Source: Mytilus trossulus
Taxonomy: Eukaryota
Reading direction: 5' to 3'
Assembly (NCBI RefSeq): GCF_036588685.1
Contig: NC_086373.1
Span: 7,006,001-7,070,000 of the forward strand
Length of the DNA: 64,000 nucleotides
Position 1 is the stretch's first letter. Each line of letters opens with the position of its first letter. Below are positions 44,328-54,314 of this stretch, piece by piece. Position numbers and translations under genes: made by a program. Below the pieces are notes generated by a model, which saw nothing but the letters and a program-made list of their open reading frames with translations, had not been told where the DNA came from and ran no database searches.

Positions 44328-46620
44328 CTGTATATCACTTGAATATATTTCGTCCTGAATATGCATGTCATATTGTTCAACTGGGGGTTGAACATCTTAC
44401 GTCATCATCTCCCCTTATATTTAGTCACATCAAAACCCTTTTAAATTGAAAAAGTTGATAAAAAGAAAAAGATGAGCTGACATCTACTCTTGATTTCCAT
44501 ATTACTGGAAATATCGAAATTGTATAAATTGTACCTCTGAAAGGGTTAATATATTTTAAAGATATAACTTAGTAATGGCTTTCAATTCTTCCGTCAATGC
44601 TGAATTATACAAACAAATAGTCCAATTAGCAAACGTGACTTTGAAGATATATTGCGACTCCATATATCTTGACTTGCAAAAGATTGGAATAATGCAATCA
44701 TAGCATTTTACCGAGATAAGACTTCTACCCTAAAATAAAACCAGTGACATTTTACATACTGTGCAACCATTCGGACATTCCAAGTATGAAAATGTGACCT
44801 AAGGTTTAGAGGTTGTATAGATTAAATTAGAAAATTAAAAGGTTCTTGTAATAGAATAAATGCTATATAATTGCTATATAAACACATACAAGACGTTATA
44901 TCTACAGTAAATAGTCAATGTGAAAATGATTAAAAAGTACATTTTAGGCCAAGCTGCCGAATGACAACAACTATTTATGGAATGCAAGTATACATGTACG
45001 TAATATAAAGGTAAGGAGATGTGGTATGATTGTCAATGAGGCAACTATCCACGTTCGAATGACGTAGATTTAAGCAACTATATGTCAGGTATGTGTATTA
45101 AATATACAAAGCATCGATCGTATTCACGGGATAGCAAAAACTAACGAAACCAAATACTTACAAAAAATTCGACTGAATTATGTTGAATGCAATAGTACTT
45201 GATTTCGTTCGCATTAAATGTTGACATCTAATATATTTTTGTTTAAACTTATTGTTTTGTACCCTTACTTCAAATTAAGAGTTAAATTTCTAGTAAATAC
45301 ATAAATAACTATTAGTTTTAAAATGATGGAAAAGAGAAAGAATTAAAATAAGTTGAACCATCATGTAAAATTTAACAAAACAATAATCCTCCACCCCCTC
45401 ATAAAAAGGGAACAGGTGGCCCAATAAGTATTTGTTTATATTCAGTGTATGATATGCTATAGTGACTATAGTATATTGCTTGTTAATGCACGACTTCCTG
45501 ATACTGAAAATGTATTACAAAATACGAATATGCTGGTTAAGCTCACGCCATCTCTAAACTAATGTCGACTATTAAGTTGTATTGACTTCTTATTGGCAAC
45601 CCTCTTGGAGCGACATTCATAGATATGCTGCTGACACAAGTATAATGAACTATATGTGCCTGTCCCAAGTCAGGAGTCTGCAATTCATTGGTTGCCGTTT
45701 GTTTATGTATTACATATTTGTTTTTCGTTATTTTTTTTTTTATTTAAATAAGACCGTTAGTTTTCTCCTTTGAAATGTTTTACATTGTCATATCGGGGAC
45801 TTTTATAGCCGACTATGCGGTATAAGCTTTGCTCATTGATGAAGGCCGTACGGTGACCTATAGTTGTTTATGAATGCGTCATTTTGGTCTCTTGTGGACA
45901 GTTGTCTCATTGACAATCATACCACATCTTCTTTTTTATATATACATATAGGAACAGTTAGTCGGGGATTAATGGGCAACTGAAAAACAGATCGACATCA
46001 AAAGTACTATTGGTGTACATCAACTCTTAATTTTATAGTTTCAAATATGCTATCTTGTATACTCTTTTCCAAAAACAGAATCTATAAAACAAGACATGCA
46101 TACCAACATTCTTTCCATGACCTACTGGATTTGACCCTGGACATACGTTGACCACTGAATGACACGACGGGAACAATTCCTTCTGCATATTGCTTTCAAT
46201 GTATTGTTGTATTGGATTAAAGATAAAACCTTTACAACACCATGCATAATTTAAGTCTTCAAATTATTTAATTAAAATTCATATGAGCCGATTAGAGGTA
46301 AGAGGAGTTGGTTCGTTTCTAGTTTTTTTTTATTTAATCCGTCAACCTATGGCAGAAAAAGGTAGAAGCGTCTTGCACAAGATGAAAAATTGGGAAATTT
46401 GTTCTCAAATTTTAATTTTATGATAGAATAATACTTACGTAATTGGAAATTACATTAGGATTATCTCCCCCTAATTAGTATTCACACCGCCGATCGCGCT
46501 TTAAAATATCAATAAAGCGCTCAGGTATATCGACTCCCACCACGCATGCGTGATTCCCCAGTCTCTCTCGGCGAAAAGTGTTCACCAAAAAAGATTCAAA
46601 AGGGGAGGTGGGTGGGAGCC

Positions 46621-46722
46621 AATTACGTAAGTATTATTCTATCATAAAATTAAAATTTGAGAACAAATTTCCCAATTTTATATTAATTCATAATACTTAC
46701 GTAATTGGAAATTACATTAGGA
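46621..46722 (-). repeat. DIRS internal complementary region (ICR)
   Basis: 46621-46679 is the reverse complement of terminus 46386-46444; 46674-46722 is the reverse complement of terminus 51624-51672; joined through TTTT. Confidence 0.93.
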
Positions 46723-46917
46723 GATTTCTAAGCTATCCACAGCTGAAGAATCTTTCTGTACTTTGTATACTGTATTTTCTTCACATCAGTTCAGATATAA
46801 ATAACACAACACTATACAGTTAAAATTTTTTTCTTCCATTTTCTATAAATTTTTCTCCTTTTTTTTTTTTTTTTTCTTTTTTCAGAATTTTCTTCCATAT
46901 ATATACAAAATTCTTAT

Positions 46918-49782
46918 TTACACAGAATTTAAAACTTCAACATCTATGTGACGTAAATAAAAACGAGTAAAGGTTGATTCCTTTGTCCAGTCTGCTGTGT
47001 CCATAATAGACTTCACAGATGCGCCGTTAAAAAGTGCCCAAGATGGGCCCAAGGCTCTTGTAGAATGAGCACGAAATTTTTTGTCTTTTTCATTGTAAGC
47101 ACATTTAATTGCATTAACAATCCAAGACGAAATAGTCTGTGATGTAACCGGTTTATGCGGTTCAATAAAAGATAAAAACAACTTGATCTCAAACTCACTG
47201 TCAGAGTTTCTAAAAGGTGCAGTTTTCTTCAAATAATAATAAATAGACCGCTTCGGATCTAATAATTTATCTGATTGATAAGACGGAATAAAAATCTTGC
47301 TGCCAAAATGTTTTGGTCTATCCTGTTTTGATAGTCCATGACGAACAAAAGTTACCCCTTTCTTCTGCACAACAATCGACTCTTCTCCAATACACAAAGA
47401 TTGTAAGTCACTGCATCTCCTGAAAGAAGTAATTGCAATTAAGAATGCAGTTTTCCAAGAAATAAACTTCAAATGAGCATGTTTCATTGGTTCAAAAGGT
47501 GCTTGTTTTAATTTTTTTAAAACTAAGGGTAAGTCCCATTCAGGTAAAAGCACTACTTTTGGAGGTCTCGAGTTAAAAACACCCTTTATAAGACGAGTTA
47601 TATAAGGATGTTGTCCTACTGGAATTTTCCCAATTGGAGCTAGGAATGAGGATAACATAGATCTATAACCAGCTATGGTTCTATACTGAAGACCTTCTGA
47701 GAATAAAAATGTCAAAAACTCAGCCGCCTCCGTCAAAGAGGCACTATAGGGATCAATTTCCCGTCTACTACACCAGCTATTGAATTTTCGAAATTTGACA
47801 GAGTAATCTTTTTGAGTCCCAGAGCGCCATGAGGCTCTGAGTAATTTTCTAGTTTCTTTAGAAAAACCTTTCTCTTTAAACTGTTTGTCGATAAAAACCA
47901 TGCAGTCAGATTGAATACTGCTGGATTTGGATGAAATATGTTTGTTTTTGGCTGGTGTAATAGATCCTCCCTGACTGGCAGGCTCCTTGGATAATCTATT
48001 ATGTACTTCAGAAGATTTGTGTACCAATGTCTGCGCGGCCAATGTGGGGCTATTAGAATTAACTGACAATTGTACTTTGTCATGTGTTGTAGTATTTTTG
48101 GTATTAGACAAATTGGAGGGTAAGCATATGCATACATGTTGTTCCAAGGAATTGTTAGAGCATCTATTGCATAAGCCTGAGAGTCTGGGTTCCAGGAGCA
48201 ATAGATCTGTGTTTGTCGATTTTTCGCAGAGGCGAAAAGATCTATGTGAGGTGTCTCCCAAATCTGAAACATTGCATGAGTTATCTCTTTGTTTAATGAC
48301 CATTCCGTTGGTTGAATTTTTACCCTGCTTAAATGGTCTGCTAGAATGTTCTTTTTTCCTGCAATGTGTGCAGCTTTCAGAAAAATTTGATTTTCTAGCG
48401 CTAATTGCCAAAGTTTCCAAGTTCTCATACATAGCTGGGGAGAACGAGTGCCTCCTTGTTTGTTTATGTAACGAACAACGGTTGAATTGTCTGACCGAAT
48501 AAGAACATTTTTGTTTATCAATTTTGGGAGAAAATGTTTTACAGTTAGAAAAACTGCCTCCATTTCTAAAGAATTTATGTGGAGAAGTTTTTCTTCTACT
48601 GACCATGTACCCTGAACTATGAGACTGTTGTTGATGTGACCTCCGTACCCTGAATTTGATGCGTCTGTTGTTACTGTTATTGACGTTTCCCAAGGTGTTA
48701 TTGATCTGCCTATGACCAAATTTTCTATTTTTAACCACCATCTGAGGTGACCTTTTAGATGTTTCGAAAAAGGAATTTTTATTCCTAGATTTTGACAAAC
48801 TGGTTTCCAATGATAAAGGAGGTGTAACTGAATTGGTCTCATAAAGAGTCTTGCATTTGGAATTAATTCTATGCATGAAGCCATAATACCTAATAATTGT
48901 AGAAAATCTCTTGCTGTTGCTTGATTTTGCTTGTTTAAGATAAGTTCTACTGCAGAAAGGAGTTTTGACACCCTTTCTGATGTAGGACGAACCATTCCCT
49001 CTTTTAGAGAAAACAGTGCTCCTATGTATGTTATTGATTGTGTTGGAATTAGGCTCGACTTTTCTAGATTTACTACAAATCCTAAATTTGTTAGGAGTTT
49101 TAGCGTTTTCTCTCGATCTGAAATCAGCATTTTTTTGGTCTGATTTAGCAAAAACCAATCGTCTAGATAAGTTGCTAGACGAATATTTTGGGCTCGTAAA
49201 TGAGCTGCCACTACAGAACACACTTTTGTGAAAATTCGTGGTGCTGATGTTGGACCGAAGCACAGCACCAGAAATTGGTAACACTGATTGTTGACACAAA
49301 ATCTTAGATACTTTTTGTGTGTTTCGTGAATTGGTATGTGGAAATAAGCATCTTTCAGATCGAGAGAAATTGCCCAATCTCCTTTTTGTACTAAGTTTAA
49401 GACACTGTTTAGAGAATCCATTTTGAAGTGTTTTTTCTGAAGACACTTGTTCAGAGGTTTTAAATTTATGACAGGTCTCAAATCGCCTGTCTTTTTTGGT
49501 ACTAGAAAAAACGTACTGTAAAAACCGTAGTTTTTTTCTTTTACAGGTACATTTTCTATAGCGTTTTTTCCAAAAAGTTGATCTATTTCTGATAACAGAA
49601 TAGGTAAATCTTTCGCAGGAACATTTGTTTTCTTTATTCCTGTTTGTGGGATTTTCCCCGAAAATTCCAATTTGTAACCCTCTTTTATTATTTTTAAAAC
49701 CCAACTGTCGTTTGTTATTTTTGCCCAATTTTGCCAAAAAAGTTTTAAACGACCTCCTACAGGTATCTCTGGATTCTGACAT
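46918..49782 (-). CDS. DIRS tyrosine recombinase ORF (954 aa; YR/integrase domains in the C-terminal about 330 aa)
   Basis: Catalytic set visible: RRCSDL (R), LSKQ (K), HSTR (HxxR), ADW (W), TFTRFY (Y); preceded by a SAM-like binding region (ASWRSGTQKDY...). Confidence 0.93.
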   Translation of the reverse strand: MSESRDTCRRSFKTFLAKLGKNNKRQLGFKNNKRGLQIGIFGENPTNRNKENKCSCERFTYSVIRNRSTFWKKRYRKCTCKRKKLRFLQYVFSSTKKDRRFETCHKFKTSEQVSSEKTLQNGFSKQCLKLSTKRRLGNFSRSERCLFPHTNSRNTQKVSKILCQQSVLPISGAVLRSNISTTNFHKSVFCSGSSFTSPKYSSSNLSRRLVFAKSDQKNADFRSRENAKTPNKFRICSKSRKVEPNSNTINNIHRSTVFSKRGNGSSYIRKGVKTPFCSRTYLKQAKSSNSKRFSTIIRYYGFMHRINSKCKTLYETNSVTPPLSLETSLSKSRNKNSFFETSKRSPQMVVKNRKFGHRQINNTLGNVNNSNNRRIKFRVRRSHQQQSHSSGYMVSRRKTSPHKFFRNGGSFSNCKTFSPKIDKQKCSYSVRQFNRCSLHKQTRRHSFSPAMYENLETLAISARKSNFSESCTHCRKKEHSSRPFKQGKNSTNGMVIKQRDNSCNVSDLGDTSHRSFRLCEKSTNTDLLLLEPRLSGLCNRCSNNSLEQHVCICLPSNLSNTKNTTTHDKVQLSVNSNSPTLAAQTLVHKSSEVHNRLSKEPASQGGSITPAKNKHISSKSSSIQSDCMVFIDKQFKEKGFSKETRKLLRASWRSGTQKDYSVKFRKFNSWCSRREIDPYSASLTEAAEFLTFLFSEGLQYRTIAGYRSMLSSFLAPIGKIPVGQHPYITRLIKGVFNSRPPKVVLLPEWDLPLVLKKLKQAPFEPMKHAHLKFISWKTAFLIAITSFRRCSDLQSLCIGEESIVVQKKGVTFVRHGLSKQDRPKHFGSKIFIPSYQSDKLLDPKRSIYYYLKKTAPFRNSDSEFEIKLFLSFIEPHKPVTSQTISSWIVNAIKCAYNEKDKKFRAHSTRALGPSWALFNGASVKSIMDTADWTKESTFTRFYLRHIDVEVLNSV

Positions 49783-49916
49783 AAAATATTTACCTGCTTT
49801 TTGTAGTCATTTAGATCTACCATTGCCACGAAAAGAACCTTTCTTTTCACCATCAGCCTCTTTTCTACCAGAACCAAAGCGTCTGAAATTAGGTTTAAAT
49901 CCACCTTTGTTTTCAC
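47733..49916 (-). CDS. DIRS pol: reverse transcriptase, RNase H and DAM-like methyltransferase domain (true start uncertain)
   Basis: PVGGRL, RPVINLK, SLDLKDAYFHIPI, LCFG...APRIFTK, YLDDW (RT); TTDAS, HINSLE, SDNSTVV, NILADHLSR (RNase H); IDLFAS and YAYPP (MT-like). Confidence 0.95.
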   Translation of the reverse strand: MKTKVDLNLISDALVLVEKRLMVKRKVLFVAMVDLNDYKKQVNILCQNPEIPVGGRLKLFWQNWAKITNDSWVLKIIKEGYKLEFSGKIPQTGIKKTNVPAKDLPILLSEIDQLFGKNAIENVPVKEKNYGFYSTFFLVPKKTGDLRPVINLKPLNKCLQKKHFKMDSLNSVLNLVQKGDWAISLDLKDAYFHIPIHETHKKYLRFCVNNQCYQFLVLCFGPTSAPRIFTKVCSVVAAHLRAQNIRLATYLDDWFLLNQTKKMLISDREKTLKLLTNLGFVVNLEKSSLIPTQSITYIGALFSLKEGMVRPTSERVSKLLSAVELILNKQNQATARDFLQLLGIMASCIELIPNARLFMRPIQLHLLYHWKPVCQNLGIKIPFSKHLKGHLRWWLKIENLVIGRSITPWETSITVTTDASNSGYGGHINNSLIVQGTWSVEEKLLHINSLEMEAVFLTVKHFLPKLINKNVLIRSDNSTVVRYINKQGGTRSPQLCMRTWKLWQLALENQIFLKAAHIAGKKNILADHLSRVKIQPTEWSLNKEITHAMFQIWETPHIDLFASAKNRQTQIYCSWNPDSQAYAIDALTIPWNNMYAYAYPPICLIPKILQHMTKYNCQLILIAPHWPRRHWYTNLLKYIIDYPRSLPVREDLLHQPKTNIFHPNPAVFNLTAWFLSTNSLKRKVFLKKLENYSEPHGALGLKKITLSNFENSIAGVVDGKLIPIVPL

Positions 49917-51390
49917 TAGGTTTAGCTGCTACCTTAGGAATGCGAAAATTGGAAAAGTCATTTTTAGCTACTTTAGGACCATTAGTGTCTTGGCTAGTAT
50001 GAATGATAGCACTCTTCCTCTTAAAACTTGAAGTTGAGGTAGCTGATTTACGAGTTAACTCTGGTAGTAAATCTTTGATTTGTTTGTTTGTCTCAGAACG
50101 ATTTTTCAGTTTCTCTTCAAAATCTTTCCCAAGAACACCATCACTTGACAATTTAAGAGATAAAAACTTATCATTAAGCTCTGTTATGTCCTCTAGACCT
50201 GTATCTAACAAAGTGGCTTTCCTACGGATCAGATGATGAAATGCACCTGTTCTAGCCGTTTGATCCATAGATTTCACTGACATGGCAAAAATATCCTTGA
50301 CCATTTGTACAAGTAAATCAATATTTGGTTCAGAATCATTGAGTTTTTCCATTAATGAACCTAAGGCTTGTTGCATGTATGCCGTAATAATCAAACCCAT
50401 TCTAGCTGCTGACTGACCTTTGAAAGCCATATTTTCAAAAATTTTCTCAGGTTTAGAAAAAAGTTTATTATGAGCTTTACCAGCATTAGGACCATGTCGT
50501 TTACACAGTAAAGTTTGAGTAATGTCATCTAGTTTTGGTAAGTTAAGAATATCAGCTGATTTATCACTCACTGGAAAACTAGCCCTATATTCCTCTTTAT
50601 AAGTTGACAATAATAAAGGATTATCACAGTGCCATGATTGATTCAAAATATTAATCTGACTTTGATCCAGAACAATACCAGCTTCAGATTTGTCTGGTTT
50701 AGTTTTGGCATCTTCACCAAAAATGTCACCAAGGATATCTCTACTGACATTTTCAGTATCAAGAGAGTCCTTATCAACTACCGAATATCTCTGAAAACGG
50801 TTGTGTGAACTGTTTTTCACAGAAGAATGTTGGGATTCATTATCAGAATCTAAATCTAAATCAAGACCCCTTCTTTCGTCTCTATCCGGTTGAAGGGAAA
50901 TTGCATCATCAATGTCATTATCATGATTTGCAACACTAGCATGTCTGAGAGAATTTTGCCCACCTGACGTGGCAATGTCCCTCGAGTCCTGAGAAATGTT
51001 CTGCCCACCTGAAGTGGCAATTTCTCTGTCCGTTTCTATTTGTCCACCTGAAGTGACAGTTTGTGAAACGAACTTCTCGAAAAGAGGTAGAAAAATGTCC
51101 ATTCGAGAATTCACCGAATTAACGGTCTCTTTGACACTAGAAATTTCTGCCCTCAATTCATTTTCTATGTTTACAGACAAACCTGTTGTTGACAATGTCT
51201 CCGGTTCCTCTGATACTTCTTTAGCACACGTGCTGCTAGCTTTACGAGACTTACTTGTCGTCTTTTTACGACTTCCGGTCTGTTTACCTGACGATTTCTC
51301 GTTTTTATTATCAGAGCGAGACGGAGTAGCTTTAGGAGAATTTGCTTCTTCACTTGCCGAATTAATGGCCGTAATGAAAGCTTCTGCCAT
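49807..51390 (-). CDS. DIRS gag-like ORF1 (527 aa)
   Basis: First long ORF after the 5' ITR; low-complexity S/K-rich N-terminus, helical core and basic C-terminus; position typical of DIRS gag. Confidence 0.85.
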   Translation of the reverse strand: MAEAFITAINSASEEANSPKATPSRSDNKNEKSSGKQTGSRKKTTSKSRKASSTCAKEVSEEPETLSTTGLSVNIENELRAEISSVKETVNSVNSRMDIFLPLFEKFVSQTVTSGGQIETDREIATSGGQNISQDSRDIATSGGQNSLRHASVANHDNDIDDAISLQPDRDERRGLDLDLDSDNESQHSSVKNSSHNRFQRYSVVDKDSLDTENVSRDILGDIFGEDAKTKPDKSEAGIVLDQSQINILNQSWHCDNPLLLSTYKEEYRASFPVSDKSADILNLPKLDDITQTLLCKRHGPNAGKAHNKLFSKPEKIFENMAFKGQSAARMGLIITAYMQQALGSLMEKLNDSEPNIDLLVQMVKDIFAMSVKSMDQTARTGAFHHLIRRKATLLDTGLEDITELNDKFLSLKLSSDGVLGKDFEEKLKNRSETNKQIKDLLPELTRKSATSTSSFKRKSAIIHTSQDTNGPKVAKNDFSNFRIPKVAAKPSENKGGFKPNFRRFGSGRKEADGEKKGSFRGNGRSK

Positions 51391-51936
51391 GTTGACAATG
51401 AAAAGCGTCTATCTCAAAAACTTACAATTAAACTATGAAAATACACGATATATAAATCAAAAAAGTTACATTTCCGAGAGGAAAAAATAAAGCGTGTGAA
51501 CACTTTTCGCCGAAGAAGAAGACTGGGGAATCACGCATGCGTGGTGGGAGTCGATATACCTGAGCGCTTTATTGATATTTTAAAGCGCGATCGGCGGTGT
51601 GAATACTAATTAGGGGGAGATAATCCTAATGTAATTTCCAATTACGTAAGTATTATGAATTAATATAAAATTTATAAATTGTCATATACGAAATTGAATT
51701 GGAATGTTTACATTACATTGAATGGTTTTTAAGACGGTATACAGTAATTTGGGAAACATTTCATCGAAAGAGTTCAAAGTTTGCTGTGCCGCAATTAGTT
51801 GCATCAAAAGTGAAATATTTGTCACTGAACATCAAAATACATTCGAACGACTGTAGTTCTTTTCTTTACAGTTATTCAAATATTATATACCTTTTTAGTA
51901 TGGTGTACTGTATAGTCGTCTCATTGATATTACCAC

Positions 51937-52454
51937 TTTGGAAGATATGGGCTCCAAATTCCTTAGTCAGTATTTTATAAATTCAGAGCCGCGAGATAGG
52001 ATATGCCATTGACGCGCCGGCATATCTTCTTGTGACATTTCTCATCATTTTAGCTTTGTTTACGTTCCCAGGATTAACCAGGGCAACTTGTTCCAGTATA
52101 ATATAGTTTAAAATATGCCATTTTCTTGTTTTCAAATAGAATATTAATAACTGTGTGAAGTGTACTTTGTCGATCATGCAAAACGTTGTTTTTAATTTGG
52201 AAGATATGGGCTCCAAATTCCTTAGTCAGTATTTTATAAATTCAGAGCCGCGAGATAGGATATGCCATTGACGCGCCGGCATATCTTCTTGTGACATTTC
52301 TCATCATTTTAGCTTTGTTTACGTTCCCAGGATTAACCAGGGCAACTTGTTCCAGTATAATAGTTTAAAATATGCCATTTTCTTGTTTTCAAATAGAATA
52401 TTAATAACTGTGTGAAGTGTACTTTGTCGATCATGCAAAACGTTGTTTTTAATT
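51937..52454. repeat. About 259-bp near-perfect tandem duplication
   Basis: TTTGGAAGATATGGGCTCC...GTTGTTTTTAATT twice; second copy lacks 3 nt. Confidence 0.93.

Positions 52455-53249: not shown

Positions 53250-54314
<1,065 letters not shown>

Follow-up and report, generated by a model that had tools for sequence, protein, structure and literature searches.

How can a retrotransposon have two enzymes translated when both lie beyond the stop codon of its gag gene, in reading frames that overlap each other for hundreds of codons? This question is raised by a DIRS1-like element of the mussel Mytilus trossulus, which lies in a stretch of 64,000 nucleotides (NC_086373.1, positions 7,006,001 to 7,070,000; hereafter the window, whose own numbering is used throughout). 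On the minus strand of the window the gag frame ends at a single UGA, the frame of the tyrosine recombinase (YR) continues in line with gag, and the pol frame with the reverse transcriptase (RT) lies at +1. Statements about cited papers refer to the sections of those papers that were available to us. The overlap of pol and YR has long been described, though translation of the two overlapping open reading frames (ORFs) is not addressed in the sections examined, which describe the overlap and give no expression route (PMC3266345, PMC3783388, PMC7192593, 10.1101/2021.08.05.455354, PMC6681497, PMC9341512, PMC4157794, PMC5633606); the part examined of PMC5009743 does not mention DIRS. Our literature search, which did not extend to Goodwin and Poulter 2001 or Poulter and Butler 2015, found no readthrough, programmed frameshifting or internal splice described for DIRS. 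A general suggestion of frameshifting or readthrough may be contained in these two works, and our claim of novelty is therefore limited.

A first-pass annotation of the window had proposed that the UGA alone acts as a three-way switch, at which ribosomes terminate, read through to YR or shift +1 to RT, helped by a stem just downstream. The evidence presented here bears out this proposal only in part and favours a different arrangement, in which three separate signals stand within about 45 nt: a candidate +1 shift site at UCU_UUU_CGU ahead of the stop, a UGA-CUA stop in a leaky context, and the donor of an intron that removes pol. We assign a probability of roughly 0.6 to this combination as a whole. 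Within the literature searched, such a scheme was not found described for DIRS; one of its steps is seen in the data and the other two are suggested by strong comparative signals.

A probable intron that begins just past the gag stop

The argument refers to the following features.

49807..51390, minus strand: gag ORF, 527 aa, from the ATG at 51390 to the TGA, assigned by its position and its likeness to ORF1 of sister families
47733..49928, minus strand: pol frame, +1 to gag, 731 codons, with an RT domain (PF00078, E 2e-22)
46918..49806, minus strand: YR frame, in line with gag, 962 codons
49804..49809, minus strand: gag stop in the type II context UGA-CUA, with predicted readthrough
49828..49836, minus strand: candidate +1 site UCU_UUU_CGU in the gag frame, eight codons upstream of the stop and inside the stretch in which the RT frame is open
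49942..49950, minus strand: second UUU_CGC, at gag codon -46, matching a site at -43 to -50 in other families
47420..49793, minus strand: 2374-nt intron, bounded by GT..AG on the element strand (CT..AC on the forward strand), as placed by contig joints
49788..49796, minus strand: 5' splice donor CAG/GTAAAT, cut 49794/49793, 13 nt past the gag stop
47420..47442, minus strand: 3' splice acceptor, a pyrimidine-rich tract ending in TTTCAG, cut 47420/47419

When the minus strand was read again, the gag, RT and YR frames, their coordinates, the stop context and the location of the stem were all as first annotated. The gag stop occupies 49809-49807 and is followed by CTA; the YR frame then stays open for 962 codons, its first ATG standing at 49782, eight sense codons past the stop, to give 954 aa, and gag, the stop codon and the YR frame together amount to 1490 aa. 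Ahead of the stop the RT frame holds ATGs at 49853 and 49823, and the conserved PVGGRL of RT begins at 49763, 16 codons past the AAT that overlaps the gag stop.

Contigs from four runs of four studies (X5, X7, X8 and X9) bear on the processing of this region. A joint that skips 2374 nt (47418/49793, with CT..AC at cut +1) is present in contigs of X5, X7 and X9, three of the four runs and from different studies, and X7, X8 and X9 also yield unspliced contigs that span this region. Two further joints, each confined to one run and lacking GT-AG ends, are a 200-nt gap in the 3' untranslated region (46698/46899, X7) and a junction of the two element ends separated by 40 letters (46434/51598, X5). 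The joint has the GT..AG ends, donor consensus and pyrimidine tract of a spliceosomal GT-AG intron, and an AG/GTAA-like word 7-13 nt past the stop in five compared families had been marked as a donor before the joint appeared. Our first guess at an acceptor, at 47881, which would have produced an in-frame Gag-YR fusion, was rejected, as it is not conserved and the acceptor was observed at 47420. Among the 33 donor-side and 40 acceptor-side matches scored in the element's own genome there is no copy with a 2374-nt gap. Raw RNA reads from four 2026 runs (1, 16, 5 and 19 reads) contained no joints and were too thin to be informative. Taken together, these data make it very probable that the splice is genuine RNA processing.

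The intron takes in the whole of the RT, RNase H and methyltransferase coding region together with the N-terminal half of the recombinase domain. Its acceptor sits in an Arg codon that precedes the presumed first catalytic Arg of that domain. Once exon 2 is entered, the readthrough frame meets a stop after 21 codons and the RT frame after three, and the third frame continues into the last 166 recombinase codons; because both enzyme frames close this early, the spliced RNA likely encodes Gag alone. Its 3' region is about 1.0 kb, compared with 3.4 kb in the unspliced form. Spliced RNAs that make RT and YR had been named at the outset as an outcome that would overturn the recoding proposal; a splice was found, yet it removes RT and half of YR rather than making them.

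Related families and the position of the donor

To place the junction in a comparative setting, a census was assembled from 206 loci in the element's own genome, metagenome contigs (80 of 205 confirmed) and genome contigs (6); named vertebrate, echinoderm and Dictyostelium DIRS junctions lay outside it. The 199 loci with a junction formed 80 families at a cut of 82% RT identity, and 21 of these were left out because the representative copy was broken or its layout unclear. The 59 remaining families were classed by frame layout. Class 1 (39 families, picked for an open YR frame) has RT at +1 and the YR frame in line with gag after a single stop, class 2 (14 families) has RT at -1 without a long overlap, and class 3 (6 families, two of them perhaps with a mis-assigned gag) has RT at -1 and a long YR frame at +1. 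A quick tree of 58 RT starts, from which the class 2 family L103 was omitted as too short, assigns the element to a clade that comprises 15 class 1 families (SH-aLRT 99). Several census loci (L201-L205) and the proteins P0012, P0027 and P0058 are DIRS sequences in contigs or proteins labelled as bacterial metagenome-assembled genomes (Sedimenticola, Propionibacteriaceae, Ca. Thiodiazotropha), and are probably host eukaryote DNA.

Donor-like sites, defined by at least five of seven matches, lie within 50 nt past the stop in 11 of the 15 clade families, where they are confined to +4 to +13 and share one phase, against a background of 71/1263 windows in class 1 and 37/437 in class 2. Three further clade families carry GTAAGT 36-42 nt upstream of the stop end. 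Elsewhere such sites occur within the same distance in one of the six class 3 families and in nine of the 14 class 2 families, where a donor-like GTAAGT stands soon after the gag stop. The phase used by the clade appears to be the only one in which the TAA or TGA of the donor closes neither the RT nor the YR frame, and its constancy suggests that both frames are read through the donor. On the acceptor side, 11 of the 15 clade families could be tested and four could not; the AG falls in the same codon in eight of the 11 and, as judged by eye, in the next codon in the other three.

The gag stop as a candidate leaky stop

The stop codon itself carries a strong comparative signal. TGA-C stands at the gag stop in 15/15 clade families, and UGA-CU in 8/15, when an RT-frame Asp is encoded by GAC in only 118 of 296 cases. 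Across class 1 as a whole the gag stop is TGA in 24 families, TAG in 15 and TAA in none (n=39), compared with TAA in nine of the 20 class 2 and class 3 families (p 1e-5) and TAA at the end of RT or YR in 17 of 53 cases within the class 1 elements themselves (p 2e-5). Either TGA-C or TAG-G is found at 28/39 class 1 gag stops, as against 1/20 in the other layouts and 3/53 of the RT and YR stops. An alignment of junctions across related families, which had been suggested as a check, thus bore out both UGA-C and a frame layout far from chance; the covarying stem for which it was also to be searched did not emerge.

The frame that in class 1 continues past the stop contains 716 stops in 6338 codons in 13 class 2 families, and the openness of the YR frame in class 1 is therefore under selection. 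In 14/39 class 1 families ribosomes would have to pass more than 60 YR-frame codons beyond the stop to meet an AUG, or the available DNA contains none, which favours entry at the stop. UGA-CUA is the type II and UAG-G the type III readthrough context, and downstream structure is needed only conditionally for UGA-CUA (PMC13517186, in the sections available). The element thus has UGA-CUA, conservation of this context and an in-frame ORF beyond it; the extended downstream stem-loop of type II sites was looked for up to 150 nt and not found. These observations make it likely that ribosomes read through UGA-CUA into the recombinase frame.

The more distant class 1 families present another picture at this position. 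L074, L148, L169, L189, L203, L160, L201 and their relatives have UAG-G or UAG-C at the gag stop, followed by C-rich stretches, and the 100 nt past the stop in the 24 distant families are more stably folded than shuffles, with a mean z score of -1.33, down to -5.9. In this the UAG-G and UAG-C families resemble gammaretroviral readthrough sites.

A candidate +1 site upstream of the stop

Entry into the RT frame may take place before the stop is reached. The influenza A PA-X site, UCC_UUU_CGU, shifts +1 at about 1.3% in lysate (PMC3498833, in the portion available), and UCU_UUU_CGU differs from it by one base. Within the overlap in which the RT frame is open, TTT_CGN occurs in the gag frame in 13/15 clade families, at positions -7 to -50 codons, whereas 5000 codon shuffles average 1.5 and never exceed seven. 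All 13 TTTCG words are in the gag phase, TTT_CGN is the top word of a codon plus two nucleotides, and in two families with overlaps of only nine and ten codons it still falls inside them. The UUU_CGC at codon -46 would be unproductive in this element, because a TAG at 49931-49929 interrupts the RT frame. UUU_CGN is reportedly also a +1 frameshift motif of amalgaviruses. The clade therefore has the zero-frame UUU_CGN of a PA-X-type site within the overlap, conserved beyond coding needs, with the caveat that Phe-Arg (F-R) pairs elsewhere mostly show the same codon choice. Overall, the comparison makes it fairly likely that a +1 shift at UUU_CGU yields RT.

Other layouts suggest that frameshifting is of wider use. 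Strict X_XXY_YYZ heptamers are present in the overlaps of 13/14 class 2 families, compared with 5/39 in class 1 despite its longer overlaps, a contrast which suggests that DIRS elements ordinarily reach RT by frameshifting. The class 2 heptamers (L080-L088, L101-L110, L168, L197) take forms such as U_UUU_UUA, A_AAA_AAC and U_UUA_AAC, often directly after the RT frame opens. TTT_CGN within the last 60 gag codons is found in 0/14 class 2 families and in 4/6 of class 3, where YR is at +1, and there it would lead into the recombinase frame. These four families, with RT at -1, YR at +1 and a gag-frame UUU_CGN, are L073 (G000 C8:46141045-46147845), L152, L162 and L187; L073 and L162 additionally carry a -1 slippery heptamer, and one gag end may feed both a +1 and a -1 shift in them.

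Weighing the alternatives

The proposal that the UGA itself is the switch must be judged together with its stem.

49759..49797, minus strand: 7-bp stem with arms 49797-49791 and 49765-49759, starting 9 nt past the stop and present in the minimum free energy fold

This stem does not behave as a stimulator of recoding: at -7.3 kcal/mol its z score is -0.29, with 77 of 200 shuffles as stable, longer windows around it reach only z -1.09, it is not conserved across families, and its 5' arm is the donor in use. It pairs the donor with Ile-Pro codons of RT, and a role in damping splicing is possible, without support across families. Known +1 shifts at a slow stop, of the antizyme, prfB and Euplotes types, depend on the codon that precedes it. 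A conserved slip-prone codon directly before the stop is lacking in the clade, where this position takes seven values (AAA, AGA, AGC, AAG, CAG, CAA and TCC); AAA is found in only 5/15 families, and the better +1 motif stands upstream in 13/15. The annotated switch accordingly keeps UGA-C readthrough and a +1 route to RT, both on comparative grounds, and loses the shift at the stop and the stem. Some families are kinder to it. The RT frame is open across the stop here, TGA-C is universal in the clade, and in one clade family without UUU_CGN, L062 (G000 C10:45241425-45248225), the RT frame opens five codons before UCC-UGA-C and the donor lies 42 nt upstream, which makes it the best candidate, from its sequence, for a shift at the stop. 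CCC or TCC also precedes the stop in 7/24 class 1 families lacking UUU_CGN and 0/15 having it (p 0.03). A shift at the stop is thus possible in L062 and the distant CCC/TCC families, and for the element studied here we regard the three-way UGA switch as unlikely.

It is also unlikely, in our judgement, that no recoding occurs at all and that translation of RT and YR starts at AUGs of their own, whether on subgenomic RNAs or through reinitiation once gag has terminated, with the splice doing no more than making a Gag mRNA. The RT-frame AUGs at 49853 and 49823 and the YR-frame AUG eight codons past the stop speak for this reading, most clade families have a YR-frame AUG 7-37 codons past the stop, and contigs cannot reveal where transcripts start; yet the stretch from the left repeat to 49853 contains 28 ATGs, AUGs do not keep their positions across families, 11/39 class 1 families have no RT-frame AUG ahead of the conserved RT start, and 14/39 lack a YR-frame AUG for more than 60 codons. 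Internal starts would also leave unexplained why the class 1 gag stop is never TAA and so often stands in a TGA-C or TAG-G context, as well as TTT_CGN and the -1 sites of sister families. Further splices that the four runs do not reveal, from the same donor to an in-frame acceptor before YR or to an acceptor in the overlap for RT, would draw on a donor that is real and fixed in phase, and rare forms may be dropped from contigs. They are improbable given the single GT-AG joint listed across the four runs and the lack of conservation at the guessed acceptor; they would moreover free the 645-codon overlap from staying open, yet it is open in 39 families, and the fixed phase is the sole one that keeps both frames clear of the donor's TAA or TGA. 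Most doubtful of all is that the joint is a DNA deletion derivative, or that the spliced RNA makes a 173-aa C-terminal fragment of the recombinase from the AUG at 49810. The runs may contain DNA, and this AUG, a third-frame codon that shares its last two letters with the gag stop (A-UGA), comes into phase with the last 166 recombinase codons when spliced; but in three studies the joint falls exactly on GT..AG ends and uses a conserved donor, no copy of that kind was found among the own-genome matches, the overlapping AUG is not conserved across the clade and has an open path to the donor in only 6/12 families with a downstream donor, and the fragment would be without the N-terminal half of the recombinase domain.

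Several observations count against the combination of intron, +1 shift at UCU_UUU_CGU and UGA-CUA readthrough that we prefer. The four runs were taken as RNA by automatic guess only, the joint is not seen in the contigs of X8, and its shorter side is 26 nt. Downstream donors are found in only 4/24 class 1 families outside the clade, and the 8/11 agreement in acceptor position is about what Arg codon usage predicts. No structure signal is present in the 100 nt past the stop (mean z -0.04 over the 15 clade families), and the 39 class 1 families were chosen for the very openness of their YR frame. TTT_CGN is missing in 2/15 clade families and present in only 2/24 distant class 1 families; moreover, F-R pairs outside the overlap are also TTT_CGN in 5/6 cases in the clade, and codon choice alone is therefore a weak argument, the more so as avoidance of TTTAG as a cryptic acceptor could explain this bias. 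An upstream RT-frame AUG in 14/15 clade families leaves room for internal initiation, and the shared ancestry of the families means that the Fisher and binomial p values overstate independence.

Proposed expression scheme

From the frames, the joint and its ends, the unspliced contigs and the conserved signals, all of which were observed, we infer the translation events and their rates as follows. Two RNAs would be produced, a spliced one giving Gag and an unspliced one giving Gag with a little Gag-RT and a little Gag-linker-recombinase. Most ribosomes on the unspliced RNA would stop at the end of gag and release the 527-aa protein, some would slip +1 at UCU_UUU_CGU, which they reach eight codons ahead of the stop, and produce a Gag-RT of about 1218 aa, and others would read through UGA-CUA to make a Gag-linker-YR of 1490 aa; recoding rates of a few percent or less would be expected by analogy with PA-X and the alphaviruses. 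On the spliced RNA exon 2 would halt a +1-shifted ribosome after three codons and one that had read through the stop after 21, with neither enzyme made. A donor no more than 50 nt from the stop keeps a spliced RNA clear of exon-junction-dependent nonsense-mediated decay, and the donor found here, being within this distance, would spare the spliced RNA from it. Splicing would in this way set the excess of Gag, and the two recoding sites would set the levels of RT and recombinase independently. As the shift site precedes the stop on the RNA, each enzyme would be governed by a site of its own rather than both by a single codon.

More broadly, the end of gag in DIRS may be a modular switch composed of a PA-X-type +1 site for RT, a leaky stop for YR and a donor that turns both off, the modules being exchanged with the frame layout; we consider the chances of this generalization to be even. 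Under it, -1 heptamers would be expected where RT is at -1, UUU_CGN where the long ORF is at +1, and UGA-C or a structured UAG-G where YR is in frame.

The element and its surroundings

The boundaries and repeats of the element are as follows.

46388..51671, minus strand: full-length DIRS1-like retrotransposon, about 5.28 kb, with ATT...ATT termini
51520..51656, minus strand: left inverted terminal repeat with a core of 137 nt, fully complementary (100%) to its right counterpart
46428..46564, minus strand: right inverted terminal repeat, core
46619..46722, minus strand: internal complementary region, pairing with both termini

The ends were deduced from the complementarity of the internal complementary region. 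The element has inverted terminal repeats, this internal region, NTT ends and a pol with RT and RNase H; the inverted repeats, the internal region and the ATT ends identify it as a full-length DIRS1-like element. An overview of the group lists the same features, including ATT-type ends (PMC3266345, in the part available). It is an intact DIRS1-like element and a real feature of a known family. The own genome contains 12 copies of 89-100% identity that cover most of the junction query, indicating a young family of at least 12 related copies; TGA-CTA is kept in 11/12 of them and the TTTTCGT stretch in 12/12. Its RT is 98% identical, over 47% of its length, to a database protein labelled Mytilus galloprovincialis. 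Another DIRS family of the same genome, L074 (e.g. C2:66901451), comprises some 40 near-identical copies, in many of which the 803-codon RT frame is intact, and is a very recent burst.

The gag protein has no Pfam match. Within gag, three degenerate 29-nt repeats at 50954-51066 encode repeated TSGGQ peptides. An RNase H-like domain in the pol frame (PF17917, E 0.01) is under the cut-off, and the C-terminal part of pol, which has no Pfam match to a methyltransferase domain at E 0.01, is taken by us to be the methyltransferase from its position and motifs. In the YR frame about 645 codons that overlap pol belong to no recognised family and are followed from about 47868 by a tyrosine-recombinase-like domain, conserved at 28-68% across families. 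This domain has no Pfam match and a PDB sequence search gave nothing below E 0.24; presumably it is the recombinase, by its R, HxxR and Y motifs and its position. A comparison of the 645-aa overlap product with Protein Atlas gave matches of 0.92-0.94 to unnamed or RT clusters, which are uninformative because an alternative frame over RT can yield such matches. Beside the element a unit of about 259 nt is perfectly duplicated in tandem (51937-52454), and an actin coding exon on the minus strand (53250-54314, translation read by eye) stands about 1.6 kb from the element's left end.

Relation to known systems

With the DIRS1-like group, including Dictyostelium DIRS-1, the element shares its three ORFs (gag; pol with RT, RNase H and methyltransferase; tyrosine recombinase), the long overlap of pol and YR, the inverted terminal repeats, the internal complementary region, the ATT termini and a size near 5.2 kb; the sections of the overview examined give neither a mechanism for expressing pol and YR nor a splice, and the mollusc elements in it have no long overlap, unlike the present mussel family (PMC3266345). 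The likeness to influenza A PA-X lies in a zero-frame UUU_CGN with a long +1 ORF, in the form UCU_UUU_CGU here; the PA-X shift was measured by mass spectrometry and reporters, whereas the case here is comparative and the shift would supply an essential RT (PMC3498833, as far as available). The stop has the type II UGA-CUA context of alphaviruses, with UGA-C across the clade, and UAG-G, the type III context of gammaretroviruses, is present in 11 more distant families whose group has a mean z of -1.33 (PMC13517186, in part). In contrast to those viruses, readthrough here would lead not to a polymerase but to a recombinase behind a 645-codon overlapping linker, and the clade is without the extended stem-loop. 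The plant Ty1/Copia element EVD also splices near the end of gag, to shGAG, a Gag-only RNA for excess structural protein; in the portion of the source examined, EVD has one ORF and a short splice coupled to early termination (PMC5580714), whereas the mussel element uses its own gag stop and a 2.4-kb intron that removes pol, and carries two coexisting candidate recoding signals.

Implications

If the scheme is correct, this is an element that uses both +1 frameshifting and stop codon readthrough on one mRNA, and the open frame of 645 codons across RT would be explained as the route by which ribosomes that pass the leaky stop reach the recombinase. The shift site and stop context are named and the intron is mapped, so that the predictions are exact and cheap to test. 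The families compared provide a large natural set of candidate recoding signals in animal-type genomes: 39 possible leaky stops, 13 possible +1 sites within a single clade and 13 possible -1 sites. DIRS reverse transcriptase and recombinase ORFs that have been annotated from their first AUG are probably parts of Gag fusions.

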